From IMG/VR virus record IMGVR_UViG_3300030060_004280, positions 40,995-104,994 of that record: DNA of 64,000 bases; one strand, 5' to 3'. Of this stretch, positions 20,306-63,709 are shown one piece after another (the stretch's first letter is position 1; each line of letters starts with the position of its first letter). The position numbers were made by a program, and so were the translations under genes. The notes below the pieces were generated by a model. That model was not told where the DNA came from. It did no database searches and worked only from the letters and a program-made list of their open reading frames with translations. The DNA is from a virus.

Positions 20306-20306
20306 A

Positions 20307-21506
20307 TCAAAGCCCCACAATCATATCAATTGGTTGGAATGTGACGCTACCCTCATAGATGTTATTTCCTGCGTCATATCCAAAGTTCATTCCTACAACA
20401 GTTCCGCGAATACCTGTGAACTTGTCAGTAACATTGAAATCTGTTCCGAACTCATTGTAATTTCCAATACTGCTTTGCTCTTCGATAGAGCGCGCACCGG
20501 ACACGATTAATAAGTTGCGTGTGACATATCCATCATTTGAAGTAACATTGTTTGTTTTTTGGACGAGAGAATTGTAAGGGATTTGAATACCGACAATGTA
20601 ATCACCGGAACGGTCAGCAATAGAAAATGATGTATCAAGGCCATGTTCATCACTTTCGTTATCCAACCCAACATCAATAAGCGCGCCCGACACACCGGCA
20701 AGATTCGCATTACCTATCGCCGCGATAAGGTCTTGAAGTTTATCACCCGCGCTTTTACAATTATGCAATGTTCCACCACCAAACAATTCAAACTTGGGTT
20801 TAGCGAGAGTGCCACCATCACTCCAAAAATTAGGAGTAGCGTTGTTTCCATCCGGCCCTAATTCGACTGATGTTATTGTAAGTTTTGAACTGCCCGTCGA
20901 TGCGATAGAACCTACACCTACTGATATTGATAGCGCGTTTAGTATTGTATCACTTGTTGAACCTGTGCTTGTTAACTGAACATTGAATGATTGATTTTGA
21001 TTAAAAGCGGCAACTACTCTTGCCGCAAGTTGCGCGCCCGTTGTTACAGATTGAATACCGACTGTCAATATGGGTGACCCTGTGGCATATGTATGACTTG
21101 TTGTATCTTTATCAAACTTAATTGTAATAGGAGCGCGAACTCGACTTTTGTTTGTGTATGCTGTTGCAAGTTCAAATGTTTTATTGTCTAAATTAGCAAC
21201 GGTTATAGCGCCACCGTCACCGTCCATAAAGAAGTCATTACCTCCACCCGATGCATCAGCGCTTAGGCCAAAATCAATAGTGCAGAAAGCCGCATCTTGT
21301 TGAAATGATGTTGCCGAGCAATCATCATCTCTCAATATACAGTCGATTTGAATATCACATTGAACCGTATTTATGTCAATGGCTAACCTTTCTGCAAGAA
21401 TAGGAATAGGTATTACCGGAACTGAACGAGATACGCTTAGCGTGTATGATGTAGCGTCAAGTTCAATCACTTGGTCGTCTTGTCTAATGAGTCTAATTCT
21501 TGACAT
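20307..21506 (-). CDS. Putative distal tail protein with inserted domain
   Basis: Immediately follows the tape measure gene. N- and C-terminal beta segments (IELDATSYTLSV...; GIRGTVVGMNFGYDAGNNIYEGSVTF) flank a Thr/Gly-rich insertion. Confidence 0.5.
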   Translation of the reverse strand: MSRIRLIRQDDQVIELDATSYTLSVSRSVPVIPIPILAERLAIDINTVQCDIQIDCILRDDDCSATSFQQDAAFCTIDFGLSADASGGGNDFFMDGDGGAITVANLDNKTFELATAYTNKSRVRAPITIKFDKDTTSHTYATGSPILTVGIQSVTTGAQLAARVVAAFNQNQSFNVQLTSTGSTSDTILNALSISVGVGSIASTGSSKLTITSVELGPDGNNATPNFWSDGGTLAKPKFELFGGGTLHNCKSAGDKLQDLIAAIGNANLAGVSGALIDVGLDNESDEHGLDTSFSIADRSGDYIVGIQIPYNSLVQKTNNVTSNDGYVTRNLLIVSGARSIEEQSSIGNYNEFGTDFNVTDKFTGIRGTVVGMNFGYDAGNNIYEGSVTFQPIDMIVGL

Positions 21507-41772: not shown

Positions 41773-43626
41773 TTAAAAACCGCTTTCTTGGTTCTTACTT
41801 GTAGGGTCTTTAGCGGCTTCAACAGCGTCAAGAGCCTGTTCAGTTACCGTTTTTTCCGAGCCGCGCTGATTCTTTTTTGAAGTGGGTGCGCCACTCAAGT
41901 GCGTTTCCGAACTAAGAGGCGCGGGTCCATTATCGCGCTGTCCTGTTCCTTCACCAAGTCCCATAGCGCCGCCCTTTTCCATCATCATGATAGCCTGTCC
42001 GCCTCCCGATGCTCCGCCTTGAGGCGGTAGCCCCCCGCCGCCTTGAGGAATCATTGCACCGCCCGGAGGTGTCCCTTGTTGTGGTGGCGGCATAGGCATA
42101 CCGCCGCCGGGAGTTGGAGGTGGCATTCCACCCGGAGGCGGCGCTCCACCCGGAGGCGGCGCTCCACCTGCACCACCGGCAGGAGGTTGTTGAGGTTGAG
42201 GGTCGGGCTTCTTGTAAGTGAATCGTATATCTCGCCCTGCATCTTCGGTTAATTCCGGTTGGAAACCAAGCGCTTGCATACGCTGTGCAATATTGACTTC
42301 TTGCTCATCGCGTCGTAGTCTTGTAACATCATCCTCTTCTTCGTTAGGGTAAAGAGTCAATTCCCATTCGTCGACACCCATTTCTTTCAATAGGCGCGGG
42401 AATAGATTTTTTGCATATATTTTCTGTCCGTATTCAACAGCACGATTAGTGACAAGAATCTGCATACCCTCATTGTTGAGTCCGCCGGACTTACCTGCGT
42501 CCATCATAAAGATACTCGATACACCATAAAATGCCGCTATACGCATTCTTACTTCATCACGAACCTGCGCGTATTGCATTTCATCAAGGCTATCCATGAA
42601 GCGCACAAACTCAACTTTACCTCGACCGGATGCTGATTCTATACCAACTTTCGGAATATAATGAGGGTCGCGTTCCATCTTCTCTTCTGCGCCTTTCCAA
42701 AACGATGCAGTTGATTGAATGTTATCAGTAGTGATTGCGAGAACACCACGCGGTATTCTTCGCTTTTGATATGCAAGGTAAATGTAATTATCCATAGCGG
42801 TAAGAGTTTGGGCTTGCCTCCACATTGTAGCGACAGGACTACGCCCATACAATTTAGAAGGATTAAACTTACTTGTGTGAATAATTTCACCATCAATGTA
42901 ATACTGCGTTTTACCACTACCTGCGGTGTTGATGTAGTGAACATCTTGTAATGGTAGCGAGCAAACTTCACACTTTTTATGGTCGCCATTGTGAGGGTAT
43001 GTTCTGTCACGATGAACAGGGCATATGAGATACCTGCCACCTCTTGCTCCGCGCTTATCAGCAACTATCCTCATGAAAGTTGGGTCACCACGCATAACTT
43101 CTTTAATTCGGAAAAACTCTATACCGCCGCTATCGGGGTCAATGAAATACTCTTTGATAAGAATAAGGAATGCATCATCAACAATGTCTAAATCCCATTC
43201 TATTTCACGCATAACATCCATAAAAGATTGGTCCATGCTGTTGCGTTGGTCTAACAACCAACGAGGATAAAGAACTTGGTCTGCGCTTGGGCTTTTGAAC
43301 TCTTCATTACCGCATATTCGACATTCTGCAACGGTATCATGATTGTATTCTTCGCCACAATTGGTGCATTTTTTGTGAAACTTTTTTTGCCAATAATGGC
43401 CGCGCCTAAATATTTCTTGACATAGTGTGTTAATTGTAGTTCTCAAAACAACTGATTCTTGAACAGTTGCATATAGCGCGGGAATGCTTACACCTTGAAC
43501 AAGAACAGGCTCTTGAATACCACTTTTCCAAAGCGGCATAATTGGTTCGGGTGTAGTTCTGCGACGGAATGGTTTTGACAAAGACGACAAGAATCTGCCG
43601 ACTACACCTTTCTTTTCTTCAACCAT
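41773..43626 (-). CDS. Portal protein with Zn-finger insertions and Pro/Gly-rich tail
   Basis: Portal hallmarks (SFMDVMREIEWDLDIVDDAFL...EIIH...LYGRSPV...EMQYAQVRDEVRMRIAAFYGVS). Cys pairs CTNC/CRIC and CPVH/CEVC. Downstream of TerL. Confidence 0.85.
   Translation of the reverse strand: MVEEKKGVVGRFLSSLSKPFRRRTTPEPIMPLWKSGIQEPVLVQGVSIPALYATVQESVVLRTTINTLCQEIFRRGHYWQKKFHKKCTNCGEEYNHDTVAECRICGNEEFKSPSADQVLYPRWLLDQRNSMDQSFMDVMREIEWDLDIVDDAFLILIKEYFIDPDSGGIEFFRIKEVMRGDPTFMRIVADKRGARGGRYLICPVHRDRTYPHNGDHKKCEVCSLPLQDVHYINTAGSGKTQYYIDGEIIHTSKFNPSKLYGRSPVATMWRQAQTLTAMDNYIYLAYQKRRIPRGVLAITTDNIQSTASFWKGAEEKMERDPHYIPKVGIESASGRGKVEFVRFMDSLDEMQYAQVRDEVRMRIAAFYGVSSIFMMDAGKSGGLNNEGMQILVTNRAVEYGQKIYAKNLFPRLLKEMGVDEWELTLYPNEEEDDVTRLRRDEQEVNIAQRMQALGFQPELTEDAGRDIRFTYKKPDPQPQQPPAGGAGGAPPPGGAPPPGGMPPPTPGGGMPMPPPQQGTPPGGAMIPQGGGGLPPQGGASGGGQAIMMMEKGGAMGLGEGTGQRDNGPAPLSSETHLSGAPTSKKNQRGSEKTVTEQALDAVEAAKDPTSKNQESGF
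42128..42168. repeat. 18-bp tandem repeat encoding GAPPPG in the portal tail
   Basis: ccacccggaggcggcgct x2 plus a partial copy. Confidence 0.8.
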
Positions 43627-45062: not shown

Positions 45063-45463
45063 CTTTTCAAAGCCGCGCCTTTCGGAGTCAATTTACCGCC
45101 TTTACTTGTTGGTCCTTTCACTCCACCCATTCTCGCACAAAACGATTTGCGCCTTTTTGCTTTTTTACCACCGGGTTTCAACTTACTCGGTTTAGTTGTA
45201 ACCGGAGGTTTTAGATTCGCGCCGCTTTTTCGCTTTGCGGCGGCTCGACCTTTAGCGTTCAATCCACCTTTACGGCTGTGTTTATTTGGATTGTAACCAT
45301 GAAACGGCTTGCTTTTCTTTTTGGCTTTGAGAACTTCAAGAGCAACTTGAACAGGTGAGCAACAATCACAAAATGTAACCTCTTTTGCTATATCGCTATC
45401 ATTCATCATCGCTAACTCTTCTGCCGTTATTGGCTCATGTTCTATGTATTCGTATTCTGTCAA
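45050..45463 (-). CDS. Basic phage protein (DUF6321-like) with acidic leader
   Basis: GGLNAKGRAAAK...NLKPPV...RRKSFCARMGG...ALKRWNC is a pattern I recognise from marine phages. Preceded by SPVQVALEVLKA. Confidence 0.6.
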   Translation of the reverse strand: MTEYEYIEHEPITAEELAMMNDSDIAKEVTFCDCCSPVQVALEVLKAKKKSKPFHGYNPNKHSRKGGLNAKGRAAAKRKSGANLKPPVTTKPSKLKPGGKKAKRRKSFCARMGGVKGPTSKGGKLTPKGAALKRWNC

Positions 45464-46860
45464 TCAATCAACCCCGCCATCATTTCATCAATGTCGACTA
45501 TTCTTTCACGGAACTCGGTAGTTCCCCAATGCGCTAATGCAAGCGCGATAGCAAAGTCATCATGTCGCCCGATGCTATCTAACTTACCCTTCTTAGACAT
45601 ACCGAACATGAGTAGTTCCCGTTCTAACTCGCTCATAAGGGTTCGGGAGTTTTCATCACCCCACGGTAATCTTAACTGTTCTTTTTCAAAACGCATAACC
45701 AACCCCATCAATAATGATTCTCGGCGTTGACGCGTTGAAATAAATGTCTTAATTGGTAAATCTGTATCTGCGCGTAGTTCAGTTGCAAACACACGCTGAA
45801 AGTTGTTGGCTTCAAGTTCTATAACCATAGGTGCAAACTTGGCATTGATTTTCTGTATCTCCATAATTTGTGTTCGGAAATCCATATTCTTTCTGCGAAC
45901 TACATGCACTAATTCAAGCAGTTCGGGATTGGTTGATGGGCGGCGTAATACCACCATAACAGTATAGTCAGCGCTTCTATCCGATGAAATAGCGGGGTCC
46001 CAACCGACAAAGTATTGGTCGTCGGGGTCGCCTTCTGCTCTATTGATAATTCTTAAATCGCTATCTTTAGCGGCCTGTAATACCAACGATGGGAATAAAC
46101 TGCTCATATCGTCCATCGGTTCACAAAGATATTCTCGCGCAAAAGCAATAGCGGGCATATCGTTACGCCTCGCATCAAGTGAATCTAAATCCCAACGCTC
46201 CGGCCATAGCGCTACACCCTTTGAGTTGATAGCGGGATATGTTTCAACAAGGTAACCCTCACGCTGTTCTAACTCGGTGTAAAGGTCAGTCGGTGTAAAA
46301 GGTGTTCCGACAATCATTAATTTTGAAGTGTGGTGAAGTGTAGGAACAAGAACTTCATAAAACCAACTTGCAACTCTTTGCAATTCTGTATCTGTTGTTC
46401 CCCACAGAATGTCGTCACAAAGAATCAAGTCCGGGTGAATACCACGGATAGCGCCACCAACCGACTTCGCGCTAATGTTAGAACCGTTGCTAAATCCAAA
46501 GAATGTTTTAGACCACGCATCGGCTTTTTTCATTTTTGCTAAAAATGGTATTCCGTCAATCAAATCGTTTAATGTGCGCATATGGTGTATAGACTGATGC
46601 AAACTGTGGCTGATAAGAACCGCTTTACATTTTGGATTGAACGCTACTTTCCAAAGCAAATAGCCGAGAAATAGCGTTGACTTACCGTGGTCCCTTGCCG
46701 CTTTTACACAATAGCGCTTTTGAGTTTCAAGATTATTATACCATTCTTCGTGATGATGTGATAACTGAAAGCCAAGAATATCTTCAAAGAAGAACTTGAA
46801 GTCGCGCTTCGCTACTTCATAATCTATCTCTTCAAGTGTTTCAAGGCTCAAGCCCTGCAT
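45460..46860 (-). CDS. terL: Terminase large subunit
   Basis: Walker A AARDHGKST, IRGIHPDLILCDD (Walker B), IVGTP, LWPERW, FAREYLCEP, nuclease GWDPA and HDDFAIAL. Confidence 0.95.
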   Translation of the reverse strand: MQGLSLETLEEIDYEVAKRDFKFFFEDILGFQLSHHHEEWYNNLETQKRYCVKAARDHGKSTLFLGYLLWKVAFNPKCKAVLISHSLHQSIHHMRTLNDLIDGIPFLAKMKKADAWSKTFFGFSNGSNISAKSVGGAIRGIHPDLILCDDILWGTTDTELQRVASWFYEVLVPTLHHTSKLMIVGTPFTPTDLYTELEQREGYLVETYPAINSKGVALWPERWDLDSLDARRNDMPAIAFAREYLCEPMDDMSSLFPSLVLQAAKDSDLRIINRAEGDPDDQYFVGWDPAISSDRSADYTVMVVLRRPSTNPELLELVHVVRRKNMDFRTQIMEIQKINAKFAPMVIELEANNFQRVFATELRADTDLPIKTFISTRQRRESLLMGLVMRFEKEQLRLPWGDENSRTLMSELERELLMFGMSKKGKLDSIGRHDDFAIALALAHWGTTEFRERIVDIDEMMAGLID

Positions 46861-51527: not shown

Positions 51528-51961
51528 TAGTCATCACCATCACACAATGATTCAAAAGTCCTTTGGAGAACACTCGCTATATTGTAATAAAATAAACACA
51601 CTTCTTCATTCTCCTTAAACACACCTGCATATGCGCTAAAAATAGTATGTATCGCTAACATCATATGCGCTAATATGGATTTAGCGTGTATGAACTTCTC
51701 TCCATCATCAACAGTCATAATTTTGAATTGTGTTTCCACATCTCGCACTATACCTCTATGAGTATGATACTCGGCGTATATATGTGGAGCCATGTTACTA
51801 ACTGCATGATGCCAACGGTCTATAACGACATTAATTAATTTGAAAAATCTATCATATTCATCGACTGTCAATGCGCGATTTGCTTGCAACAAGTCGCTAT
51901 CGTCAATATCTTGACATTGGATGAACGGAACAAATACAGTAGCCTCACTCATTACCTTCAC
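51527..51961 (-). CDS. Hypothetical helical protein
   Basis: 144 aa, coupled to neighbours; probable start MSEATV. Confidence 0.6.
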   Translation of the reverse strand: MKVMSEATVFVPFIQCQDIDDSDLLQANRALTVDEYDRFFKLINVVIDRWHHAVSNMAPHIYAEYHTHRGIVRDVETQFKIMTVDDGEKFIHAKSILAHMMLAIHTIFSAYAGVFKENEEVCLFYYNIASVLQRTFESLCDGDD

Positions 51962-52616
51962 CCATCAATTTACCCCTTAATTTTCGCCAAACTTCGGGAG
52001 ATTCTTTGGCTAACTCAACTTTGAGAATGTTGATTGTCTGCGCGTTGATATTTTCTGTCACATTACCTGCGGCTCGGTCTTGTATTTTTATCATCATGTT
52101 GACGGTATCACGAACTTCTTTGTGTAACGATACAATATTACGCACATATTGAGGGTCATTACGGTCTGCATCGTCGAGAAAATGCGCTAACTCACCATTT
52201 AATCGAGCAAGATTACCGCGTATGGAGTTCATTTCATCACCGGCTTCGATAGCGATTATATCAGCCGCGCCTTTTTGCACGATAGGTTTGAGATGATGTT
52301 TCAAATGATGATATGCGCTTGATTCGGGCATTCCTATATCTTGCGCTATTTCTTCTGTCGTCATTGAGCCATTGTAATATGCGTGTTCAAGAGATTCGCG
52401 TTTAACTGATGTGCAAAACTTACATTCGCTGTTAGAACCCATATGATATTCGCCCATATGGTTACGAAAATGGCGGTCTGCTGTGCCTTCTCGCCAACCT
52501 TTGTCTTTATCCAATTGTTTAGCGTCGATGAAACCATCTTTCATCAATTGCTCTAAACTATCTCGTTCTTCATCTTGACAAAACGGACAAGATGCTCGCG
52601 TTACTCTCTCGCCCAC
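51945..52616 (-). CDS. Putative terminase small subunit-like protein (tandem CxxC-HTH-HxxxH repeats plus coiled coil)
   Basis: CPFC...RHFRNH and CKFC...TTEEIAQDIGMPESSAYHHLKHH, then an oligomerisation-type coiled coil. Upstream of TerL. Confidence 0.5.
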   Translation of the reverse strand: MGERVTRASCPFCQDEERDSLEQLMKDGFIDAKQLDKDKGWREGTADRHFRNHMGEYHMGSNSECKFCTSVKRESLEHAYYNGSMTTEEIAQDIGMPESSAYHHLKHHLKPIVQKGAADIIAIEAGDEMNSIRGNLARLNGELAHFLDDADRNDPQYVRNIVSLHKEVRDTVNMMIKIQDRAAGNVTENINAQTINILKVELAKESPEVWRKLRGKLMGEGNE

Positions 52617-52667: not shown

Positions 52668-52970
52668 ATGAGAACTCCTACAAAAACCCCACGAATAGCA
52701 GGAATACCATTGAATAAAAGTTCCGCTATCAGCCTCGGAAAAGGAGTTATGGATTCTTTATTAAATCGCAAAGTCGATACAGCAGAAAGAGATAGAAGAT
52801 TGAAGATATGTCACTCTTGTGAACACTTTAGCGCACCAAGATGCACATTATGTGGCTGTTTTATGAACTTCAAAACAACGCTATCGTCAAGCAATTGCCC
52901 TGTTAACAAATGGTTACCCGTTGGAGAACTTGCGATAGACCAATCCGGTAAAACTGAAAAGAGCGAATAA
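52668..52970 (+). CDS. Cys-rich Zn-binding protein (DUF6171-like); only plus-strand gene
   Basis: RDRRLKICHSCEHF...CTLCGCFMNFKT....SNCPVNKW. Probable start MRTPTK at 52668. Confidence 0.7.
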   Translation: MRTPTKTPRIAGIPLNKSSAISLGKGVMDSLLNRKVDTAERDRRLKICHSCEHFSAPRCTLCGCFMNFKTTLSSSNCPVNKWLPVGELAIDQSGKTEKSE

Positions 52971-53156
52971 CACTACAAGCAAGTAGGATAGGTTAGTTGA
53001 ACTCATACTGTTGCTATTGAAAGCAATAATCATAAAACATCCAAGTGTTAAACTGATTAATTGAACCATAATCATGTCAACAATGACTGATTTGCGCATA
53101 TTGCTAAAATCACTAATAGCGGTGAATAAACCACCCGTCCAATCTCCACCTTGCAT
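52914..53156 (-). CDS. Small two-TM membrane protein
   Basis: VIVDMIMVQLISLTLGCFMIIAF and LSYLLVVLFALFSFTGLVY, followed by basic RK. Confidence 0.7.
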   Translation of the reverse strand: MQGGDWTGGLFTAISDFSNMRKSVIVDMIMVQLISLTLGCFMIIAFNSNSMSSTNLSYLLVVLFALFSFTGLVYRKFSNG

Positions 53157-53157
53157 C

Positions 53158-53739
53158 TTAACGACCTCCTGTTGCTAATCCACGCACTAACGAACCAAGA
53201 CCGCCACCGACGCTTTGCATCATGCCGGGGTCAGCGATAGCCTCATTCAACATATTTTGCATCATACTTTGATTTGCAAGTTGAACCATTTGTTGAAACT
53301 GCATAGTTTTTTGTTGAACATTGTTTGATGACGCGTTAAGGATTTGAGTTTGCGCCATTGTTACGCTATCAGCCGTTGGCATACCTGTAACTGCGCTAAA
53401 ATCAAACTTATACCCATCCCCATCTTCGACTAAGCGCGCATTAGCGAGCATAGTATTGACTGATACCGCTACAAGACTACTTAACAATGAAATAAGCATA
53501 TTCATATTTGCACCATTGTTATCGGATAACCACTTGTCAATCAACGGGTTAGATGTTATCATTGCGGATAGAATCTCCATTTCGGATGGCGGCGCTTGAT
53601 ATTGCAATCCGTATGGCTGTTGTTGCCCCCATTGTTGCTGTCCTTGCGCCGGAACTTGTTGTTGACCCCCTGCTAAGCCGAGATTCAACGCGCCTTGCTG
53701 TTGTTGTTGCTGATTGTTACCATTAAACGGCCATACCAT
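53158..53739 (-). CDS. Gln/Gly-rich protein with a hydrophobic helix
   Basis: Poly-Q N-terminus, MLISLLSSLVAVSV segment, amphipathic C-terminus GLGSLVRGL; GAGGTGG RBS. Confidence 0.7.
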   Translation of the reverse strand: MVWPFNGNNQQQQQQGALNLGLAGGQQQVPAQGQQQWGQQQPYGLQYQAPPSEMEILSAMITSNPLIDKWLSDNNGANMNMLISLLSSLVAVSVNTMLANARLVEDGDGYKFDFSAVTGMPTADSVTMAQTQILNASSNNVQQKTMQFQQMVQLANQSMMQNMLNEAIADPGMMQSVGGGLGSLVRGLATGGR

Positions 53740-53748
53740 GATACCACC

Positions 53749-54642
53749 TCACGCGCTCCCATCATTTGATTCTGTCGGTAAAGGCATTGGTTGTGCTTGA
53801 ACGGCTTGTTGTTGCATTTGGTGCATCGCTAACGCGTCAAACAAAAGGCGAGTGTTGCCATTATTTTGGAATTGACGCATATCGAACATCACAATTACCA
53901 AATCGTTAATCCCCGTAGCGGTATTTGTCATATGCGTAACAGGAATATTGTCTTTTTTAAGCATTTCAAAGAACGGTTGGTATTTAGCGAGTGTTGGAGG
54001 CGTGTTATCCTTCTTTTTGATGGTGCTAATAGGAACAGCCACCACAGAAACCCCCTTCTTGAGTTTGGCTTTGAGTGTTCCACTCTTTGCTTCTTGCTCG
54101 GCTTCTTCTTCTTTTTCCCATTTTGTAAGCATATGATAGAGATGCAAGTGTTCGGGACAATATGTTCCGCGCATCTTGCGCCCACTTGTGACATTTTCAC
54201 GCGCTACAAAGGCTTCGGGTTCTCCGGTTACCGGATTATGGAAATACAACTCCCATAGCGACTTACCTGTTTCCTCATCTAAGATTTGGTCGTAAATATT
54301 ACCCGCTAAACGGATAAGATTCTCAACATCCGCCCCATCAATAACACATCGCATAGTATTGGTGTTGTATCGGTATTTTCCCCCGAAAAACCACCTTCTT
54401 GGCGAAAAAATACTTCTTTTCGTCGGTTTTAACAGTTTATACGCCTGTTTTATGTCTTGACGGCGCGCTTTTGTTGGATTCGGGTGTCTTGAAGGGTAAA
54501 AATTGACTTGAGGCACTTCAATTACACCCGCTTGCTCTTGCATAGCGGCTTGAACCATCGCCTGTTGCTGTATTTGCGCCAATGGCATATTCGTTTGTGC
54601 GGCAAGCCTCAATAAGTCTGTCTGTGATTGTTTTCCAAGCAT
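53749..54642 (-). CDS. Gln-rich-ended protein with possible metal-binding motif
   Basis: Q/A/M-rich ends; RCVID...YCPEHLH; GGTGA RBS. Confidence 0.7.
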   Translation of the reverse strand: MLGKQSQTDLLRLAAQTNMPLAQIQQQAMVQAAMQEQAGVIEVPQVNFYPSRHPNPTKARRQDIKQAYKLLKPTKRSIFSPRRWFFGGKYRYNTNTMRCVIDGADVENLIRLAGNIYDQILDEETGKSLWELYFHNPVTGEPEAFVARENVTSGRKMRGTYCPEHLHLYHMLTKWEKEEEAEQEAKSGTLKAKLKKGVSVVAVPISTIKKKDNTPPTLAKYQPFFEMLKKDNIPVTHMTNTATGINDLVIVMFDMRQFQNNGNTRLLFDALAMHQMQQQAVQAQPMPLPTESNDGSA

Positions 54643-54646
54643 TTTT

Positions 54647-55369
54647 TCACCAACTTAACATTTCCAATAGTGTTTTCTCCACATTCCATCCTATATTTGT
54701 AGCCATCATAGATACGCGGCAAGGAATACCCGCTTTTTGTAATCTGCGCATAGCAGGTCTATGCACATCGAAGACTTTGTGTTCGCGAAGTCGATTAGAT
54801 TGCCAAAGTATGTTTGCATTGTCATCCCACCATTCATCAGCCTTGTTTGCTATAATCCATACTTGTTTGGGGGAGTAGCGCTTACCTTTGAGTCTTGTTT
54901 TCAATCTTCTATATTTCCATCGCTTTTCTATCAATGCATCAACAAGGAACTCTAATCCACCCACCACATCAATGACTTGACTCCCATTACCTTTCAAGGC
55001 GCGTGTGTCAGTCATAAAGACTACTATTTCGACTTGTCTATCCACCATATCATCAATCCATAGGTTCCAAAAGCGCTGTTGGCCTCCAATATCCGCCGAA
55101 TGAACAACTCTTTTCTCCCCTTTCCATCGAATACGCTTTCTTGTGGCGCGCGGAAGCACATGTCCTCCTTTTAGCAATCTTTTCGGATGCATAGTGCGCT
55201 CTTCGATAGCCTCCATCTCTCCGGGTGTTTTCATAAACGCGTCAAGTGTAGTCTTACCGACTAATGTTGGTCCATACACGCCAATTCTGCGCGGTTTGAG
55301 AAAATTATACAATTCGCGACCATAAACGACCGCACCCATAAGTGCGCTACCCGCCATTGTCGCAACCAT
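54647..55369 (-). CDS. Arf-like small GTPase with N-terminal hydrophobic/amphipathic helix
   Basis: G1 GPTLVGKTT, G2 ERT, G3 DIGGQQRFWNLW, IVVFMTD, G4 IANKAD, G5-like MATNIGWNVE. Probable start MVATMAG at 55369. Confidence 0.85.
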   Translation of the reverse strand: MVATMAGSALMGAVVYGRELYNFLKPRRIGVYGPTLVGKTTLDAFMKTPGEMEAIEERTMHPKRLLKGGHVLPRATRKRIRWKGEKRVVHSADIGGQQRFWNLWIDDMVDRQVEIVVFMTDTRALKGNGSQVIDVVGGLEFLVDALIEKRWKYRRLKTRLKGKRYSPKQVWIIANKADEWWDDNANILWQSNRLREHKVFDVHRPAMRRLQKAGIPCRVSMMATNIGWNVEKTLLEMLSW

Positions 55370-55370
55370 T

Positions 55371-55607
55371 TCAAGAAACCCACCCAATGACTTTATTTTT
55401 AGCCCATTCGACAGTATTTTCCCAAACGCTAACATCTGTGCCGTATTCAAACCAAGATACACCTAAACCTGTTCCGATTGCGAGTAAAATAGCAAAGAGC
55501 AAACCTTTTCCGCGCTCATAATAAGTATCGAGAGTATTTTGAGTGTGCAAAGCGCGTAAGGTTGCCTCCGTAGCATCATCGCTTGGGGTTTTGAACAACC
55601 AACCCAT
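55371..55607 (-). CDS. Small single-TM membrane protein
   Basis: Start MGWLFK after GGAGTGA. TM segment GLLFAILLAIGTGLGVSWF. Confidence 0.7.
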   Translation of the reverse strand: MGWLFKTPSDDATEATLRALHTQNTLDTYYERGKGLLFAILLAIGTGLGVSWFEYGTDVSVWENTVEWAKNKVIGWVS

Positions 55608-55612
55608 AACTT

Positions 55613-56149
55613 TCACTCCTTCTTCGACTTTTTGTAAGTGCCATCAGCGTTTCGTGGCTTGTTAGCGCCTAATTTCATTGGCTTTTTGTTATTCGCTTCG
55701 TGATTTGGCGCGTTCATAGCCTCTTCTGCCGCTTCTTGCATTTCCTGTTGTAAAGCCAAGTATTGAACTACTTCGGGGTCCTCTTCAAGTTGTTGTAACT
55801 GATGTGAGAAAAGCATTTCTTGTTTCTTTAGTTCAATTTCCATTTGTTTTTGCGCAAATCCCATCTGTTGCTTTTGCATTTGTCGCGTCATACTCTTCTG
55901 CATGTTAGCGAGGCTTGCTTTTTGGTCCATTGAGTCTTGCGCAAGCATTTTCCAAAGGAAATAACCCATACCTTGTAGCGTGAACGCTCCCATAGTGTAA
56001 GTTAGTCCATTTGTTTGCGTCGAATCGTCTTTTAGCCATAGCCCTGCATCGAAAACTGCGACGGCACATCCTACTAAAACTGACACAAATGATATGAGTC
56101 CGAGTATTCTTAATTCATCCGTATTGCGTGGCGCTTGTGCGGGTTGCAT
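55613..56149 (-). CDS. Two-TM membrane protein with cytoplasmic Gln-rich coiled coil
   Basis: ILGLISFVSVLVGCAVAVF and LTYTMGAFTLQGMGYFLW, then a Q/M/E heptad region and basic tail; GAGGG RBS. Confidence 0.75.
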   Translation of the reverse strand: MQPAQAPRNTDELRILGLISFVSVLVGCAVAVFDAGLWLKDDSTQTNGLTYTMGAFTLQGMGYFLWKMLAQDSMDQKASLANMQKSMTRQMQKQQMGFAQKQMEIELKKQEMLFSHQLQQLEEDPEVVQYLALQQEMQEAAEEAMNAPNHEANNKKPMKLGANKPRNADGTYKKSKKE

Positions 56150-56286: not shown

Positions 56287-59200
56287 TCACTCGTTTCTTT
56301 GATAGCCGGGTGCGACTTGAACAAACCCTGTCGGTTGTCCTGCTTCATCTGTTGTTGGTTGCGACACTACCGCGACATTTCGTGGATTCAATACCTGTCC
56401 GTATTGGTCTTGTTGAGTTGAGAAATCTTGACCTTCGACATTCAATTCAGTTTGACCCGGCCTTTGAGCCGCTATTTGTTGTTGCTCACGCAATCCAAGA
56501 TGCTGTTCGGTAGCGTCTTCTAACTCTTGTCTAAACTGCGAAGGACCCATATTCATCAAATTAGCAAAACCTTGAGCAGTTGGTAATCTTGTTTGTATTC
56601 CTCTCAACCCGTCTTTTCCGAAGCGCTCCATCGCTTTAATTTTAAGTTGCCTTGCGCGGTCTATTGACTCTTGTAGCCCGACATTCAATGGACTCCAAGT
56701 TGGATGAATGGCTCTTATCATGTTAGTATCTTCTTCAAAATCCCTCATAATTGTCGGGTCTGCCGCTAACAACTCTTTCATGTCTTTCATAGAATCTAAA
56801 CCATAAAGTTCTGCATAATCATGCAATTTATTTTCCAAATACAAATTAGGGAAATGATACATGTCATAGAACTTATTCGCGTTTTCGACAATCTTCATAG
56901 CATCATCATAAGACATATCATGCTTTTCGTTATGCTTGAATGCTCGACCTTCTTGGTTCTTTCTAATAAAGTCGAATACTTTACTTGCAAAGTTTTTTGA
57001 TTCGTGTGGTTGCGCTTTTAAGTCCGCATCATTCATTCTTTCGCTCAAATAATCATCAAAGTTATGTTCTTGCAACATCAAACTTTGATTCATTGCTTCG
57101 GGATGAGGGAATCTGTTAACTATATGATACGATTTCAATTGACCTTTTCCTGTTTTATCTTCAAAGTCTTCAATTGGATTACCGTTTTTGTCAACCACCA
57201 TTGCTTTAATTGCATTATCTAATTGAGATTGTTGCTCGCGAGTTAGATTAGCGTCTTTGTATTCGTCAAGAGTCATAGGGTTACCATCGGCATTTAGTAT
57301 TCTTTCCATTGGTGTTCCATCCGCGCCATCCGGCATATGTTTTACTTCGGGATTCGATTGCAAATTGAAAAATGACATGATAGCGCGCATCTTTGCCATT
57401 TCTCCAAACTCACGCTTGGCTATTTTTGATATTTCATTTGGTATTCTCATATGAAGAGCGTCATGTCTTGGCTTTACCTCCCAATACACTTCACCATCCT
57501 CATTTGTTTTTCTTGCCGCAGGTCTTAACCAATTCTGCGCGTTTTTAGAGTGCTTTTCAAGATTAGGATGTAATACATTACCCTCCGGTAACGCCTTTGT
57601 ATATTCATCATCGGGAACTCCTTGATTCAAACCTTGTTTTAATTCAAGATATTGACTGTTTGGTTTAATAACACCTTTTCTGCTTTGTTGTAGCGGTGAC
57701 TCGCCCGCTTCTAATACACTATCCATATCTTTCAAAAAGTCCATAATTTGTTTATCTTCTTCTTCTTTAATAAAATCCCATTCGTTACCGTTAGCCATTT
57801 CAAATGCGGAGCGAATACGATTAGCGGCTCTTTTATTACCTGCAAAGAAGTCATACACGGCTTGCGGGCTTTTATCATGAACCCACCCTTCATTATTGTC
57901 AAAAGCGCTTCGATGCTTTAATTCCCACGGTGTTACTGTTCTGCCCGCGTGATGCGTCAATAACGGTGTAGTCCAAGTAGGGTTTTTGTAAAGACTTTTC
58001 ATATACTTCTTCATGGCTTTGTCTTTTTCTTCGCCATCCTCCATCGCTTCTATCTTTTTATACATTTCAGTATTACTACCAAGCGCTTGTTTTTGTTTTG
58101 GAGTCATCGCTATATTGTTATGTAACATTTTTTGAAGAGCGTCGAACTTATCATGAACTTCATGCTCTTCGTCTTCAAAGTCTGCATATTTATGTTCAAG
58201 TAGCGCGTTTGCTTTTTGCACCATAGCGTTATAGACGGATTGATTAGTCGGTTTGCCGTTTTCATCCGTCATAAACACATCACCAAGACCGTAATTTTTA
58301 GCAACGCGCATAATGGACTGTAACTGTTTATTTACTGCTTTTTGACCTTCTTTGTGCCAAGCCATCTTCAAAGCAGGACTGTCACCTTGAACTAAAGGTA
58401 ATTTCATTTGACCTGTTGGCTTTTCTTCAAATACATCATCAAAGTCCATCGGCTGTTCTCCACTCTTCAATTCATCAATAATTGAGGCATTGCGTGTAGC
58501 GTCTTTTGCTCTTTTTTTAGCGGCTTCAAGTTCTTCTCGCGTGTGTATATTCGGCAGTTCACCATCATTTATGCGCTCTAACATTAAATCAAGACCCGAC
58601 AAGCCTGTATCACCAAACATTTCATCTATAATATTAGACGACATAGGTGATACACCCTCCAAAGAAGGTTGCGGTTCGGGTGGTGGGAATGTTGCACCCG
58701 CTTCACCCAATAAGCGCGCAGGGTCGGTTATACCAAAGTCGATAGGCTTAGAATGAGCGTCGACTCTTTCTTTATGTAACACCCTGCCGAGTTTTTCCGG
58801 GTCCATAGCAACACCCGCTTTATGAGGATGATGAGAAATCTGTTCAATCAAATGTTCATCATTAGGGTCTAACATACCACGACCTAAACATTGACCGCAA
58901 ACACCATCCGACACATACCCCTTAACTTGACTGTCCCAATGTTGACAATCGGGGCATGCGTATTCTCCATGATTCATCGGTCCAAGTTCGCAAGAGTTTT
59001 TCGCATCATAATCTTCAAACGATTGGTAACCGGCAGGACGCGCGTGTTGACTAATCCATCTTCTCATTGCCTTTGATGATGCGCTATGACCTTGTAATTC
59101 CTCATGATGTGCTTTAGCGTATGAGATTAACTCATCTTGATTGATGTGTGTGTTGCCACCGCAAGTTCCGCATCGCGAAAGTGACCCTGTTGGGTTTGAA

Positions 59201-62200
59201 TAATTTTGTCTGTTAGGATGCGTGTAACTTCTGTTCGCTTTTGCCTTATCAGCCTCACTCATGTGTTCACCCATATGAGCAAACTCATCATCAACCACTT
59301 TCATTTGTTTTCGCATTTCGTCCGCGTTTTTCAAATCATCCAATATTTCTTGTGTTACTGTAACACCTTTGTCTTTTAGCATGGCTAAAGCCGTGTCTAA
59401 ATCATCCGGTATAGGCACATGGTAACCGTTACCCGAATAATTAACTGCTGAACCTAATGTTTCTCCTAACCTACCTCGCAAACCACCTTCGACATCCAAA
59501 GGACTCATTTCTTGTCGTCTTGGAGTTTTGATGCCGCCATCTTGTGCCATTTTGTAACCGTGTCTAAACCTAAGATTTACACCATTATTGTTTTTGTATT
59601 CACTATCGTGTAGCGCGTCAAGCGCTGTTTGCAATTTACCTAATTCGGGTTTATCGCCATGCTCTTTCAACAGCGCAGACATTTGAGGGTAAAGATTTGC
59701 AAGAGTAGCCATATGAGCATTGTTAAGTGAAAACTTAACTGCGGCCTTAGCCTCCGCAAGCGCGTCTTCTAATTTTCCTTTCTCTTCGATTGCTTTATTG
59801 TAGCGTTGTATCTGTGAACTAAATCTTACTATATCGGGATTATTTTTACAATAAATAGTTGCTTTGTCAATTAATTTTTTATTTTCTGCTTTCATTTTAG
59901 CAAGTTCATCCGCTTTCTTTTCATTACCTTCAAGCGCTTCAATTTTCTCTCGGTTCTCTAATATTTTTGGTATATTCAAACGGTTCCATAAAACCATCTT
60001 ATCATTAAAACCGGGTATCTTCTTATCCTCAACGCCATCCCTTCTTTGTATTTTACCTTTCATATAGCGGTCGAGTTTAGACTGTGCCATTCCTTGTTGT
60101 TTATTACCGGATAAGTTGATAATTTCTTTAATCATTTTTCTTTTGGCTTTGCTTGACAATTCACCATCAAACAGTTGCGGAGCAGTTATTTTCTTGCTCG
60201 TCATACTCAACAAGTTAAACGCGCCTATGAGGTCTTTCTTCTGTTCTTTCTCCATATCCTGTAAATCTTGTTGCGCGCTTCGTTTTTCAGCACCGCTAAG
60301 AGAAGGGTAAGCATGTTTCCATACTTCTGCCGCTAATGGGTTTGCTTCAATGTCATGCGCTACACCCTTCGGCATTGCTTGAATCCATCTTGAGCCAACT
60401 CCATACTTTTGTGACAAATCTTCTGTCATACCCGGAGTTCTTTTAGCGGCCATCCTTTCGCATATTTGTTTGATGAACTTTGGGTTACCTATACTTCTTA
60501 ACTCTCCATCGGTCTGCGCCCATTGTTTTTCATCATCACCACGACCTTTCAATTCGTGATAGATGTTAGCAAGGTTGGGTTCCGTTCCACGCCCTATGGG
60601 GTCGGGGTTGTCTTCGGTTGCCAACTCACCTAATTCTAATCCCATCAAATTAGGAACTTTCATCAAGTCATACAAATATGGCGAAGTCATACGACCCTTA
60701 CCGCCTCTATTCTCTCCTACATTACCTGTGCGTTCGGGAGAACCAATACAATTAGCGCACATACATTCTTCTTTTATCTTACCATCTCTAAGTTCCTTGT
60801 GTTGCGTTTTTGCTTTGGTATGATGGTTTATATCTTTCATGTCTTTAGTGTGTCTTTTGTCAAGATAACTATACAACATTCTGTTCAAAGCATCGTTAAA
60901 CTCGCCTTTTCTTTGGTGTTGACCCATCTTATCCATCATTTTTACAACACCCGCGTTTAGATTATCATAATCAAATCCATCACCAAAGACTTCTCCAATT
61001 TGTTCTAAAAACTTCAAAGGTGTAATGCCTAACTCACGGATATTTTCGCGCAACTCATTGTTTTGACTTAGCCTTGTTCTCAACCATTGAGAGTCTAAGT
61101 TAGATGCGCGCATAGCGTCAATCTTTAACTCTTCTTCTGTTGGTTTTGTTCTTGGTCCTATAAGTCCCCTACCGTATCTTTTTGACGGCGGACTTAACAA
61201 CATTAGCAAATCCTTTTCGTTGTGTATTAGCGATGGGTCTTCTCCTTCTTTTTTCATTTTCCTTTTCGCTGATTGAAGAATATGATGAGTGCCAACAACT
61301 GTATTCATGAACTTTTTGAGTTTCTCTTCGCGTTCAAACGATGATAATTCATTTCCGTCTTTGTCAGCGTAAAGGTAGTGTCCTTCGGGAACATCCGGTA
61401 TTGACACTTGCTGTGCTTCTGTCAAATCAATGTCTTCTCGACCAAGACCTTTTTGAGCAATAATGTCACCAACTCTTTTATCATATTCCTCCCTGCTAAT
61501 TCTGTTGTTGTTAAGCATCTGTCTGTAATGCTCAACTTCGTTCATCATTTGTTGATGTTCAAGTTGCGCTAATGCATCTTGGTCTAACCCCTTTCCTGCT
61601 ATCGCGTCATATTTTTTACCTGTGCGTAAAAATCTCTTCATCGCCGCTTTGTTTGCTTTGGTTCTGTCAATAACATATTGCTTTCTCGCCGCCTTACCCA
61701 TACTTGCGAGTTCTTCTTTTGTCTTACCAAATAACAACCCTTCTTTGTTCTTACCGGATAGCGCGTCAAGGTTACCCATAGGAGTTCCTAAAGCACCCGG
61801 CTCGTCAATTCCTCTTGAGCCTACTTGGATTTCTTCATCTTTAAGTTCTCCTTGTCTATCTTTCTCATCGGCGGCAAATCCAAACTCTCTTGCATCATCA
61901 ACAAGACCGTAAGGTATGAGCGCTTCGCTCATTAATCGAGTGTTAGTTTTGATTGCGGGGTGTAAGAACTTCTTGTAATCTTCAACGCCTTTTCGGTCGG
62001 CGTATTCACCAATAGCGGTCGCAATAGTTTCTCTATAATTAGGGTCATATGGGCTTATTGCGTTACCACCAAAGGCTTTCATTCCCGCGAGTGGACCCAT
62101 CAACAAAGCGTCCGGCGCGTTGACTTTGATGGGTGTCGCTATACCTAATGTCTTAGCGACTTTTTTCCATGTAGGAGTCATAATTGGGTCGCTACCGCTT

Positions 62201-63570
62201 TCTTGCGGTCGACCGAACTCTAACTTCTGTCGCGCTCCTATACTTGTAGCATTGAGAGTTTGTTGTGCGTGTTTGTTAATTGAATCTTGGAGTCGCTGAT
62301 ACGCTCTTACAATTTTTTGTTGTTGGTCTTCTTGCCTTTCACCACCAACATCTCTATCTCCCTCCATAGACCTTCTAACGGTGTCTTTGATAACATCAAT
62401 TATGGCATCATGAGTGAAATTATTAGATTTGAAATCCAATTCTTCATCGCCGTCTTGTTGCAGGTTGGCTTCTTCAAAGAATTGTCGGTAAGCGTCGTCA
62501 AGAGCAACCGAATGAGGGCTACCACCGCGCGGTGATTCATCGCGCACATCATACGGCGGAACATCAGTAAATCCTCGCGACGCTCTATTCCTTGCTCTTC
62601 TTGCATCAGCCTCCCGAATAGCGCGATTTTCATTTCTTTCAGCCTGTTGTTCATCAGCCTCTTGTGGACTGAATGCGCCCTTCGCTACTCCCTGTTCGTA
62701 AAGGTCACTCGCGACTTTCAATAGTGGGTGAATATCCTCTTCATCCCCTCTTTGACCGCTATGCCAATCTAAAGCCTCCATTACCTTGTCCGGCCTCAAT
62801 ATCTTGTATGGGTTAAGCAAACCGAGATGGTGTGCAATCTGCTCATCTTTGACGGTTGCATCATAATTTGACGCATCCAAACCATTTTCATTTGCCTTGT
62901 CAATAAGGAAAGCGCTCATGGCCGGAGTAATGATTGGTTCTTTTTGGTGCGCTAACATAAATTCGTATGAGTCGATACCCGGCAAACTTTCAACAAACGC
63001 TTCTCCTAACATTTGGCTTATATCATTAAGAGCCTCTTCGGGTGTAGCGCCAAAAGAGATGTTTTCCTCGTAAGCAGACTTCAATGCATCAAAGACTTCA
63101 TGCATCCTTTGGTTGTCTATTTTTTTATGACGCGGAGTATCGTCCTCTTCTGCCGGTTTTGCCTTTTCATCAACTCTTACCTTTCGCGCTTCTTTTTCCT
63201 CCGCGAATGATGGTTTGCCCTGTTTCTGTCTTGCTTCGTCTAAACGCTTTTTTGAGTCTGCAATGAACTTTGCTTGCGCTTCTTCGTCTAACACTTTAGG
63301 TTTGAGTTCTTCATCTGTTGGTGGCTCGGCAGGTGGTAGCATTCTTTGTGCGCGTCTTTGGGCGCTTTCAAATGCCCTCTCTTTCGCATCTTGCACAGTC
63401 ACAAATGATTTCTGCCGCGCTCTTCGGTATGCTTTCTTTCTCCTTTTGGGGTCTTGCGCCTTACTTTTTTCTCGCTTTGTTCTTTTGCGAGCAATCCTTG
63501 CTTGACGCTTTTCTTCGTCTTTTGCTTTGACAAACACATAGCCTTTGCTGTTGTCGCGCTTGGAGAGCAT
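56287..63570 (-). CDS. ~2,430-aa charged helical protein with DnaJ-like Zn-finger motifs; possible internal virion protein
   Basis: Uninterrupted ORF; probable start MLSKRDN at 63570. Motifs CGTCGG, CPDC, CGQCLGRG and CMCANCIG; very basic N-terminus. Confidence 0.7.
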   Translation of the reverse strand: MLSKRDNSKGYVFVKAKDEEKRQARIARKRTKREKSKAQDPKRRKKAYRRARQKSFVTVQDAKERAFESAQRRAQRMLPPAEPPTDEELKPKVLDEEAQAKFIADSKKRLDEARQKQGKPSFAEEKEARKVRVDEKAKPAEEDDTPRHKKIDNQRMHEVFDALKSAYEENISFGATPEEALNDISQMLGEAFVESLPGIDSYEFMLAHQKEPIITPAMSAFLIDKANENGLDASNYDATVKDEQIAHHLGLLNPYKILRPDKVMEALDWHSGQRGDEEDIHPLLKVASDLYEQGVAKGAFSPQEADEQQAERNENRAIREADARRARNRASRGFTDVPPYDVRDESPRGGSPHSVALDDAYRQFFEEANLQQDGDEELDFKSNNFTHDAIIDVIKDTVRRSMEGDRDVGGERQEDQQQKIVRAYQRLQDSINKHAQQTLNATSIGARQKLEFGRPQESGSDPIMTPTWKKVAKTLGIATPIKVNAPDALLMGPLAGMKAFGGNAISPYDPNYRETIATAIGEYADRKGVEDYKKFLHPAIKTNTRLMSEALIPYGLVDDAREFGFAADEKDRQGELKDEEIQVGSRGIDEPGALGTPMGNLDALSGKNKEGLLFGKTKEELASMGKAARKQYVIDRTKANKAAMKRFLRTGKKYDAIAGKGLDQDALAQLEHQQMMNEVEHYRQMLNNNRISREEYDKRVGDIIAQKGLGREDIDLTEAQQVSIPDVPEGHYLYADKDGNELSSFEREEKLKKFMNTVVGTHHILQSAKRKMKKEGEDPSLIHNEKDLLMLLSPPSKRYGRGLIGPRTKPTEEELKIDAMRASNLDSQWLRTRLSQNNELRENIRELGITPLKFLEQIGEVFGDGFDYDNLNAGVVKMMDKMGQHQRKGEFNDALNRMLYSYLDKRHTKDMKDINHHTKAKTQHKELRDGKIKEECMCANCIGSPERTGNVGENRGGKGRMTSPYLYDLMKVPNLMGLELGELATEDNPDPIGRGTEPNLANIYHELKGRGDDEKQWAQTDGELRSIGNPKFIKQICERMAAKRTPGMTEDLSQKYGVGSRWIQAMPKGVAHDIEANPLAAEVWKHAYPSLSGAEKRSAQQDLQDMEKEQKKDLIGAFNLLSMTSKKITAPQLFDGELSSKAKRKMIKEIINLSGNKQQGMAQSKLDRYMKGKIQRRDGVEDKKIPGFNDKMVLWNRLNIPKILENREKIEALEGNEKKADELAKMKAENKKLIDKATIYCKNNPDIVRFSSQIQRYNKAIEEKGKLEDALAEAKAAVKFSLNNAHMATLANLYPQMSALLKEHGDKPELGKLQTALDALHDSEYKNNNGVNLRFRHGYKMAQDGGIKTPRRQEMSPLDVEGGLRGRLGETLGSAVNYSGNGYHVPIPDDLDTALAMLKDKGVTVTQEILDDLKNADEMRKQMKVVDDEFAHMGEHMSEADKAKANRSYTHPNRQNYSNPTGSLSRCGTCGGNTHINQDELISYAKAHHEELQGHSASSKAMRRWISQHARPAGYQSFEDYDAKNSCELGPMNHGEYACPDCQHWDSQVKGYVSDGVCGQCLGRGMLDPNDEHLIEQISHHPHKAGVAMDPEKLGRVLHKERVDAHSKPIDFGITDPARLLGEAGATFPPPEPQPSLEGVSPMSSNIIDEMFGDTGLSGLDLMLERINDGELPNIHTREELEAAKKRAKDATRNASIIDELKSGEQPMDFDDVFEEKPTGQMKLPLVQGDSPALKMAWHKEGQKAVNKQLQSIMRVAKNYGLGDVFMTDENGKPTNQSVYNAMVQKANALLEHKYADFEDEEHEVHDKFDALQKMLHNNIAMTPKQKQALGSNTEMYKKIEAMEDGEEKDKAMKKYMKSLYKNPTWTTPLLTHHAGRTVTPWELKHRSAFDNNEGWVHDKSPQAVYDFFAGNKRAANRIRSAFEMANGNEWDFIKEEEDKQIMDFLKDMDSVLEAGESPLQQSRKGVIKPNSQYLELKQGLNQGVPDDEYTKALPEGNVLHPNLEKHSKNAQNWLRPAARKTNEDGEVYWEVKPRHDALHMRIPNEISKIAKREFGEMAKMRAIMSFFNLQSNPEVKHMPDGADGTPMERILNADGNPMTLDEYKDANLTREQQSQLDNAIKAMVVDKNGNPIEDFEDKTGKGQLKSYHIVNRFPHPEAMNQSLMLQEHNFDDYLSERMNDADLKAQPHESKNFASKVFDFIRKNQEGRAFKHNEKHDMSYDDAMKIVENANKFYDMYHFPNLYLENKLHDYAELYGLDSMKDMKELLAADPTIMRDFEEDTNMIRAIHPTWSPLNVGLQESIDRARQLKIKAMERFGKDGLRGIQTRLPTAQGFANLMNMGPSQFRQELEDATEQHLGLREQQQIAAQRPGQTELNVEGQDFSTQQDQYGQVLNPRNVAVVSQPTTDEAGQPTGFVQVAPGYQRNE

Positions 63571-63594
63571 TATACGGGCGAGGAAGTGAATGCC

Positions 63595-63604
63595 CTTGAA
63601 GGTA
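63595..63604 (-). promoter_or_regulatory. Putative late promoter TACCTTCAAG-N24-ATG
   Basis: Identical 10-mer and spacing to the site at 41757-41766. Confidence 0.55.
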
Positions 63605-63709
63605 ACGGTCGTGGGGCAAAACGGTGTAGGAGAAGCGCGCCTCAAATATTTTTTATTTGAGATTTTTTTTTCTGTATTTCGCATGGGGTTAAGCAGGGCA
63701 AAAGTGCGC

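Follow-up and report, generated by a model that had tools for sequence, protein, structure and literature searches.

Does a gene carried by a tailed virus of archaea encode a relative of the Arf family, and what would such a protein do in an infected cell? The question is raised by an open reading frame (ORF) at positions 54647..55369 on the minus strand of a 64,000 nt stretch of viral DNA (IMGVR_UViG_3300030060_004280, positions 40,995 to 104,994; hereafter, the window). The window is organized as a single long minus-strand array of genes, and all coordinates below refer to it and to that strand. A sequence-only reading had described the product of this ORF as an Arf-like small GTPase encoded by a head-tailed archaeal virus. 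What we find is an Arf-like, virus-borne family of small GTPases, not a demonstrated member of the Arf family. With roughly even confidence in the reading as a whole, we favor a membrane-located, guanine-specific switch that would control the gene cassette in which it is embedded and that has its nearest kin in the Arf family.

The GTPase gene and its nucleotide-binding motifs

Translation of the ORF yields a protein of 240 aa with an isoelectric point (pI) of 10.3. A collection of 5.8 billion proteins contained 363 homologues, nearly all of them 236-241 aa long and beginning at the ATG-encoded methionine of the 240-aa form, and none (0/363) carrying a Pfam domain. An alternative, longer GTG start at 55462 was ruled out on the grounds of these homologue lengths. 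Strong purifying selection acts on the ORF, which is a genuine gene: pairwise ratios of non-synonymous to synonymous substitution rates (dN/dS) are 0.035-0.073 against close relatives, at a dS near saturation.

We judged the invariance of residues on a 35-member alignment (57-93% identity) and counted motifs over 120 cluster representatives of the family. In the G1 motif, or P-loop (GVYGPTLVGKTT, residues 30-41; 55247..55282), residues G30, G33, G38, K39, T40 and T41 are invariant, and the pattern GxxxxGK[ST], represented here by GVYGPTLVGKT, is retained in 119/120 representatives. The probable G2 threonine, T59 (55193..55195), is likewise invariant, as are D93, G96, F100, W101, L103 and W104 within G3/switch II (DIGGQQRFWNLW, residues 93-104; 55058..55093). 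The guanine-specificity motif G4 reads NKAD (residues 175-178; 54836..54847) with invariant N175, K176 and D178; NKxD recurs in 119/120 representatives and the longer ANKAD in 117/120. A G5-like MMAT (residues 221-224; 54698..54709), in which M222 and T224 are invariant, stands where distant family members have a canonical SA[KQRL]. The full set of G boxes claimed from the sequence alone was thus recovered, with all of the strings quoted for it present in the translation, and their conservation is far beyond chance. The protein is very probably a guanine-nucleotide-binding switch.

The same reading had seen in G3 the Arf-type signature DxGGQxxxRxxW including its catalytic glutamine, and here the family bears it out in part. 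The aspartate, the GG pair and the tryptophan at D+11 (W104; 117/119 representatives) are retained, and the arginine position holds W, R or H. Glutamine at the position following DxGG (G3+1), however, is not a family feature: representatives have E (52), Q (48/119, ~40%), D (14) or H (3), and more distant members have H, A, F or D. This variability hints at slow intrinsic hydrolysis or at catalysis by a residue that a partner would supply.

Fold, nearest relatives and phylogeny

As a single sequence, the GTPase matched no Pfam family at E up to 10 and, in a phmmer search, no PDB sequence; NCBIfam and PADLOC returned nothing useful for it, and the Arf model PF00025 found no match at E up to 10 in the genomes of four complete relatives. 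A profile of near relatives gave nothing significant against the PDB, and tblastn found no match to the GTPase among 50,697 GenBank phage records. A HMMER search of 1.8 billion representative proteins returned 86 matches only, nearly all of them members of the family or fragments thereof. As far as sequence comparison goes, the family is sharply isolated, and the separate viral lineage proposed at the outset is upheld both by this isolation and by a clade of its own in the two trees described below.

Structure prediction pointed to a well-defined superfamily. The AlphaFold2 model (predicted local distance difference test, pLDDT, 77) displays the canonical strand and helix order of a G domain, with a six-stranded sheet and five helices in the predicted fold, and Foldseek matched it to small GTPases only. 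Structure comparison figures were 14.8 for SR-beta, 14.7 for an Asgard Rag-like protein, 14.3 for Sar1, 14.0 for G-alpha-s, 13.9 for Arl2 and 13.3 for the first Rab, and Arf6, SR-beta and Sar1 were among the top five representatives by structure. Upon re-alignment of the best 1000 Foldseek chains, the highest Z scores were obtained for Arl8b (16.2), Arl8 (15.9), Arl1 (15.3), GerdArfR1 (15.0), Arl2 (15.0) and Arf1 (14.9), with Rag/Gtr (14.6-14.2) and the best Rab (14.1) ranking below these six Arf-family chains. For this model, the lead of the Arf family (1-2 Z units) is modest but consistent. Taken together, motifs G1, G3 and G4, the G2 threonine and the predicted fold identify the protein as a small GTPase of the Ras superfamily.

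The same direction emerged from a widened profile, to which distant members from the search of 1.8 billion proteins had been added and from which any protein passing Pfam Arf had been excluded. Against the PDB, this profile retrieved 8OUN first (E 5.4e-8, 36 bits), followed by Arl8A (25 bits), 8OUM, Rab33B (23.7 bits), and IFT22 and KRas (~19 bits each). Entries 8OUN and 8OUM are both GerdArfR1, an Asgard Arf-related GTPase (ArfR; Vargova et al., bioRxiv 10.1101/2024.02.28.582541), whose lead in the profile search amounts to 10 bits. The alignment to GerdArfR1 spans the N-terminal helix and G1, and then G3/switch II; in between, it reaches an LP just ahead of the switch I threonine of GerdArfR1, and T59 follows the matched stretch. 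By this alignment, T59 is the probable counterpart of that threonine.

Among non-viral proteins, the closest relatives are bacterial or metagenomic. P0205, the most remote match to the family profile, exceeds the Pfam cut-offs for both Arf (36.2 bits) and SRPRB (26 bits) and belongs to a small metagenomic family, one member of which comes from a Bacteroidia metagenome-assembled genome (MAG); hhalign related the viral family to the P0205 family at 98.3% and E 1.2e-14. In the ESM Atlas, viral clusters came first, followed by bacterial clusters with Pfam Arf as the nearest named non-viral ones. On the evidence of profiles and predicted fold, the nearest known kin of the viral GTPase are Arf-type proteins. 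The Arf likeness read from the sequence therefore holds for kinship by profile and fold; it does not extend to a Pfam Arf score or to nesting within Arf/ArfR. The accompanying view that Arf-type GTPases are confined to eukaryotes and Asgard archaea proved too narrow, given bacterial metagenome proteins that pass Pfam Arf and are the nearest non-viral kin.

To place the family phylogenetically, we computed two trees, one of 87 rows (IQ-TREE, LG+C20 with posterior mean site frequencies, PMSF, quick search) and one of 46 rows (LG+F+G4). ArfR-like references were drawn from Thermoproteota, Bathyarchaeota, Heimdall-, Hod- and Promethearchaeota MAGs, and Ras-like, Arf-Pfam and Rag references from four Asgard genomes and one Thermoproteota (Crenarchaeota-labelled) MAG; the eukaryotic reference was a single Arfrp1, and the trees were built without MglA, Rup and most eukaryotic references. 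When unconstrained, they put the viral family outside Arf/ArfR, in a clade of its own with the bacterial Arf-like proteins. In the 87-row tree, support by the Shimodaira-Hasegawa-like approximate likelihood ratio test (SH-aLRT) was 82 for the clade of the viral family, its distant members and the bacterial Arf-like proteins, 92 for Arf/ArfR, 96 for Rag and 99 for Ras-like proteins, around a center without resolution. The 46-row tree set the viral and bacterial clade apart with ultrafast bootstrap (UFBoot) values of 98-99. The phylogeny called for by the sequence-only reading hence shows no robust grouping with ordinary prokaryotic GTPases, as that reading had expected, and equally no nesting within Arf.

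These trees give weight to a different account of the Arf likeness, namely that the family represents an early and independent branch within the Ras superfamily, present in viruses and some bacteria, and that its resemblance to Arf, whose sequences would be the least derived, reflects ancestral characters or convergence with no specific link to ArfR/Arf. We regard this as a serious contender, if somewhat short of an even chance. Besides the separate clade with its unsettled backbone, it draws on approximately unbiased (AU) tests (46 rows, LG+F+G4), in which joining the family with Rag (p 0.26) or Ras-like proteins (0.49) was rejected no more than joining it with Arf (0.45), none of the three being rejected; the stem to the Arf clade was merely the shortest. 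The missing Pfam Arf match, an interswitch exceeding the Arf length by ~15 residues and the unconserved glutamine are in line with it as well. Set against this account are the two independent measures that rank the Arf family first, i.e., the PDB profile search with its 10-bit GerdArfR1 lead and the six best structure chains, as well as the D+11 tryptophan and the N-terminal helix ahead of β1, which are common to Arf/ArfR.

Two metagenome proteins of 237 aa, P0239 and P0244, represent another family of like build that falls into the same clade as the viral family, with a hydrophobic N-terminal helix, GARQVGKTTL, DVGGE...W..W and NKSD; they suggest a wider, unnamed group of prokaryotic or viral Arf-like GTPases with an N-terminal helix. 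Separately, we observed ArfR-type genes outside Asgard archaea (L083-L095, L096), in MAGs labelled Thermoproteota, Crenarchaeota, Nitrososphaerota and Bathyarchaeota and in one Halieaceae bacterium MAG, with GLDGAGKTT and DxGGQxxxRxxW motifs and 30-42% identity to eukaryotic Arfrp1. Some of these could correspond to the Korarchaeia examples that Vargova et al. mention, or result from erroneous binning.

Comparison with characterized GTPases brings out what sets the viral family apart. An N-terminal amphipathic helix ahead of the G domain is a hallmark of Arf proteins (10.1101/2024.02.28.582541). Relative to ArfR, as represented by GerdArfR1 (~180-190 aa), the 240-aa viral protein has a helix that is hydrophobic and Gly-rich more than clearly amphipathic, retains the glutamine after DxGG in only ~40% of its family, and adds a ~15-residue basic insertion between the G2 threonine and β2 as well as a ~20-residue polybasic insertion between α3 and β5; it also falls outside the ArfR clade and is carried by a virus of non-Asgard archaea. 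The viral GTPase is ~15% identical to Arl8 (Arl8a/b; PDB 8JC5, 1ZD9, 2H18, 4ILE) and differs from it in the two basic insertions, in the variable G3+1 residue, in reaching no Pfam Arf score, and in its setting, a virus operon as opposed to lysosome positioning. Sar1 and SR-beta (PDB 1M2O, 2FH5, 1NRJ) gave no significant sequence match, and no SRX/longin-type or Sec23-type partner is recognizable near the viral gene. The bacterial and metagenomic Arf-like proteins (P0205; P0239/P0244), nearest in kinship and grouped in the same clade in both trees, share the overall build: an N-terminal helix, a G domain of ~230 aa and DxPG/DxGG...RxxW. They pass the Pfam Arf cut-off and are without the polybasic α3-β5 insertion, whereas the viral GTPase is the opposite on both counts, and the viral contigs of IMG/VR yielded none of them.

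Apart from this family, the small GTPases known from viruses belong mostly to giant viruses that infect eukaryotes and that took them from their hosts. These proteins (mimivirus Rab, PDB 5XC5; Rab, Ras and Ran of Nucleocytoviricota) are recognizable copies of Rab, Ras or Ran, and they are also the only viral matches that we obtained in BFVD. In contrast, the gene described here belongs to a tailed virus, and the 1.8 billion representative proteins include no close cellular counterpart of its product.

N-terminal helix, basic segments and gene cassette

The first 25 residues of the GTPase (55295..55369; residues 6-25 read AGSALMGAVVYGRELYNFLK) start with a Gly/Ala-rich hydrophobic stretch and finish in an aromatic and basic end, ELYNFLKPRR. 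In the model, residues 2-24 form a helix ahead of strand β1, and the segment is conserved over its 25 residues, with G7 and G12 invariant in the 35-member alignment. It is evenly hydrophobic and Gly-rich, having a maximal Kyte-Doolittle score over 19 residues of 1.36, compared with a transmembrane threshold of 1.6, and a hydrophobic moment of 0.1-0.38. Of the hydrophobic or amphipathic helix that the sequence-only reading had seen here, the hydrophobic character and the conservation are borne out, a clear amphipathicity is not. A classical transmembrane anchor was ruled out on hydrophobicity and length. Given its composition, the segment looks more like an interfacial anchor than a textbook amphipathic helix, and membrane binding through it is plausible.

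The two polybasic inserts noted from the sequence are real and conserved. The first, comprising a basic insertion and strand β2 (residues 60-83, including PRATRKRIRWK at 73-83; 55121..55192), contains invariant P73, K78 and R79, with Lys or Arg at 11/28 positions over residues 60-87. In the model, residues 60-75 form a low-confidence loop followed by a strand at 76-82, so that this segment appears to consist mostly of β2 plus a ~15-residue insertion between the G2 threonine and β2. T59 and D93 are consequently 34 residues apart, and the corresponding spacing between the G2 threonine and the G3 aspartate in Arf1 is 19. In Arf proteins, the interswitch hairpin shifts by two residues between the GDP and GTP states. 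An interswitch of the Arf type, for which structure prediction had been proposed as a check, cannot be assumed because of this extra basic segment between T59 and β2. The second insert, between α3 and β5 (residues 147-167; 54869..54931), has Lys or Arg at 10/21 positions and invariant Y153, R154, G162 and Y165; residues 149-164 read KRWKYRRLKTRLKGKR, and the model has an extra helix at 156-164. This basic segment occurs in distant family members as well and not in the bacterial kin, and on sequence grounds it is a hallmark of the viral GTPase family.

In G domains, the junction between the N-terminal helix and β1, the β2-β3 hairpin and the α3-β5 loop lie on the face opposite the nucleotide. 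As this topology would place all three basic segments of the viral protein on the non-nucleotide face, KPRR, the β2-β3 hairpin and the α3-β5 loop would together form a basic, membrane-facing surface. We consider it probable that the GTPase attaches peripherally to the host membrane through its N-terminal helix and this basic face.

The gene is the third of a tight operon running g178, g81, GTPase, g297, g193, g80, in which four neighbors of the GTPase have one or two transmembrane segments. The first gene, g178 (55613..56149), encodes a 178-aa membrane protein with a transmembrane segment at residues 12-40 (Kyte-Doolittle score 2.67), a helical tail and a basic C-terminus. It is followed by g81 (55371..55607), a 78-aa single-pass membrane protein (residues 33-54, score 1.97) whose start, MGWLF, is fixed by homologues and whose stop codon ends 1 nt ahead of the GTPase ATG (junction TGAAATG). 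Beginning 4 nt past the GTPase stop, g297 (53749..54642) encodes a basic protein of 297 aa (pI 9.3) with a Cys/His pattern in which C99, C162, H165 and H167 are invariant; the core of its model is confident and had no fold match. The products of g193 (53158..53739) and g80 (52914..53156) are, respectively, a Gln-rich acidic protein of 193 aa with a hydrophobic segment at 80-100 (score 1.90) and an 80-aa protein with two transmembrane segments (scores 2.31 and 2.12). Searches at E up to 1 assigned none of g178, g81, g80, g193 and g297 to a Pfam or PHROG family.

To assess conservation of this arrangement, we compared 80 IMG/VR loci taken from 292 contigs on which a relative is encoded. Across the 80 loci, the genes keep the order g178-g81-GTPase-g297-g193-g80-g223, g178 being present in 78/80, g81 in 79/80, g193 in 80/80, g80 in 76/80 and g223 in all 80; the best-conserved members of the cassette are the GTPase (58-94% identity) and then g297 (53-91%). 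A second virus lineage, comprising 140 contigs of up to ~100 kb, encodes a GTPase that is 33% identical. Its cassette follows directly on the major capsid gene and consists of two membrane proteins, the second of them small, then the GTPase and a g297 homologue (hhalign 93%), with a further protein in the g193 position, an assignment by position that does not imply homology. The cassette of membrane proteins, GTPase and zinc-type protein is therefore conserved in at least two deep virus lineages.

Two further observations concern the cassette and its surroundings. In a 108.6-kb relative (L057:6712-7316), ~600 nt separate the GTPase and g297 genes, as compared with <150 nt elsewhere, and an extra gene may have been inserted there. 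The last gene of the conserved order, g223 (51945-52616), lies between the downstream end of the cassette and the head and packaging genes, close to both. It encodes a 223-aa protein with two CxxC-like pairs and weak helix-turn-helix matches (TrmB, ArsR, IclR; E about 0.003-0.009), which might serve as a regulator or resemble a small terminase.

Proposed role and viral setting

In the reading that we favor, the GTPase would act as a nucleotide-dependent switch on the inner side of the host membrane, anchored by its N-terminal hydrophobic helix together with the basic segments (KPRR, the β2-β3 hairpin and the α3-β5 insertion). Late in infection, it would control or organize the products of the probably co-transcribed genes g178, g81, g193 and g80 and the zinc-type g297, and the process served would most likely be virus exit or a different stage of morphogenesis that involves the membrane. 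This last element, a GTPase that times or organizes the membrane proteins of its cassette for such a step, is offered more tentatively than the nucleotide switch or the membrane attachment.

Several findings weigh against this view. The GTPase reaches no Pfam, NCBIfam or PADLOC model, and its link to Arf is settled by neither tree. Its N-terminal segment falls short of a standard transmembrane helix in both length and hydrophobicity, its hydrophobic moment is low, and variation of the residue equivalent to Ras Gln61 (E/Q/D/H) clouds the predicted mechanism of hydrolysis. None of the cassette neighbors matches a holin, an endolysin, a cell-wall hydrolase or another named family, and their likeness to holins is one of topology only (small size, one or two transmembrane segments). 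The cassette of the second lineage sits inside the structural module, a position that fits assembly as well as exit, and the polybasic patches and the basic zinc-type neighbor would suit nucleic-acid binding equally well.

Assembly or nucleic-acid handling is accordingly the main functional rival to a membrane role: the GTPase and its zinc-type neighbor might act on nucleic acid or in virion assembly, e.g., as a chaperone or checkpoint for the capsid or for genome handling, with the basic patches binding DNA or RNA. The pI of 10.3, two segments consisting to ~40-50% of Lys and Arg, and the basic, Cys/His-patterned g297 would agree with this, as would the location of the cassette, directly after the major capsid gene in the second lineage and just upstream of the packaging and head genes in the window. 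We nevertheless consider it unlikely, since three or four of the cassette partners are small membrane proteins that are conserved together with the GTPase, the hydrophobic N-terminal helix is itself conserved, and the nearest relatives of the protein are membrane-recruited switches. A predicted complex of the GTPase with g297 (residues 40-256), GTP and Mg scored 0.00, a result that counts neither way on binding. It is very improbable that the N-terminal peptide serves as a tag for capsid targeting and cleavage by which the GTPase would be packaged in the head and delivered to the next host: Y-N-F-L-K just before β1 fits [WFY]-x-x-[LI]-K, but the match is one of three residues only, the Pro and Ala positions of such a tag are absent, and the candidate was rejected as weak with its Lys not conserved in the family and replaced by I, V or R in several members (WNYWIPRR, YHYFVPRK).

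Magroviruses, to which the virus of the window appears to belong (see below), are among the most abundant archaeal viruses of the surface ocean. A virus-encoded, putatively membrane-directed GTPase within a cassette of membrane proteins provides, under the favored reading, a concrete, testable handle on how they leave their hosts. A full-text literature search for magrovirus and GTPase returned nothing; PMC5434244 and PMC11706807 mention no GTPase and name no lysis system for the order Magrovirales. Arf-related GTPases have recently been reported to be almost exclusive to Asgard archaea, and a large Arf-like family in non-Asgard viruses, with bacterial kin, would either widen the distribution of Arf or indicate that Arf-like features arise easily. 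Through the distribution of Arf-related GTPases, the family also bears on the question of eukaryogenesis; the relevance to the origin of membrane-trafficking GTPases that the sequence-only reading had proposed is a possibility and not a finding. A bolder version, which strikes us as improbable, holds that the viral and bacterial clade with the N-terminal helix is the sister group of Arf/ArfR or the pool from which they came, and that the cassette is a minimal GTPase-driven machine that remodels membranes for virus exit; if true, the coupling of GTP to membrane attachment seen in Arf would have existed outside Asgard archaea, carried by viruses of other archaea.

The assignment of the virus itself rests on its structural and replication genes. 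The window encodes a T4-type large terminase (45460-46860) and a portal protein (41773-43626), and among the 50,697 GenBank phage records the only counterparts of the major capsid and portal proteins come from haloarchaeal tailed viruses (HVTV-1, HCTV-1/5; 31-33% identity) and from methanogen-associated ones, in agreement with the claim of a head-tailed archaeal virus. The literature describes such a pattern for the magroviruses that infect Marine Group II archaea (PMC5434244). Complete relatives span 103-118 kb and encode a family B DNA polymerase (PolB). Since searches of four complete relatives with the Pfam models for Rad51 and MCM gave no match, the virus type is based on major capsid protein, portal and PolB; by these genes, it is a magrovirus-type head-tailed archaeal virus of ~100 kb, and the marine archaeal (Marine Group II) host is assigned from the literature. 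Around the structural genes lie three giant ORFs, 3419-20320 (5633 aa), 34444-40689 (2081 aa) and 56287-63684 (2465 aa), the last of which is located directly upstream of the GTPase cassette.

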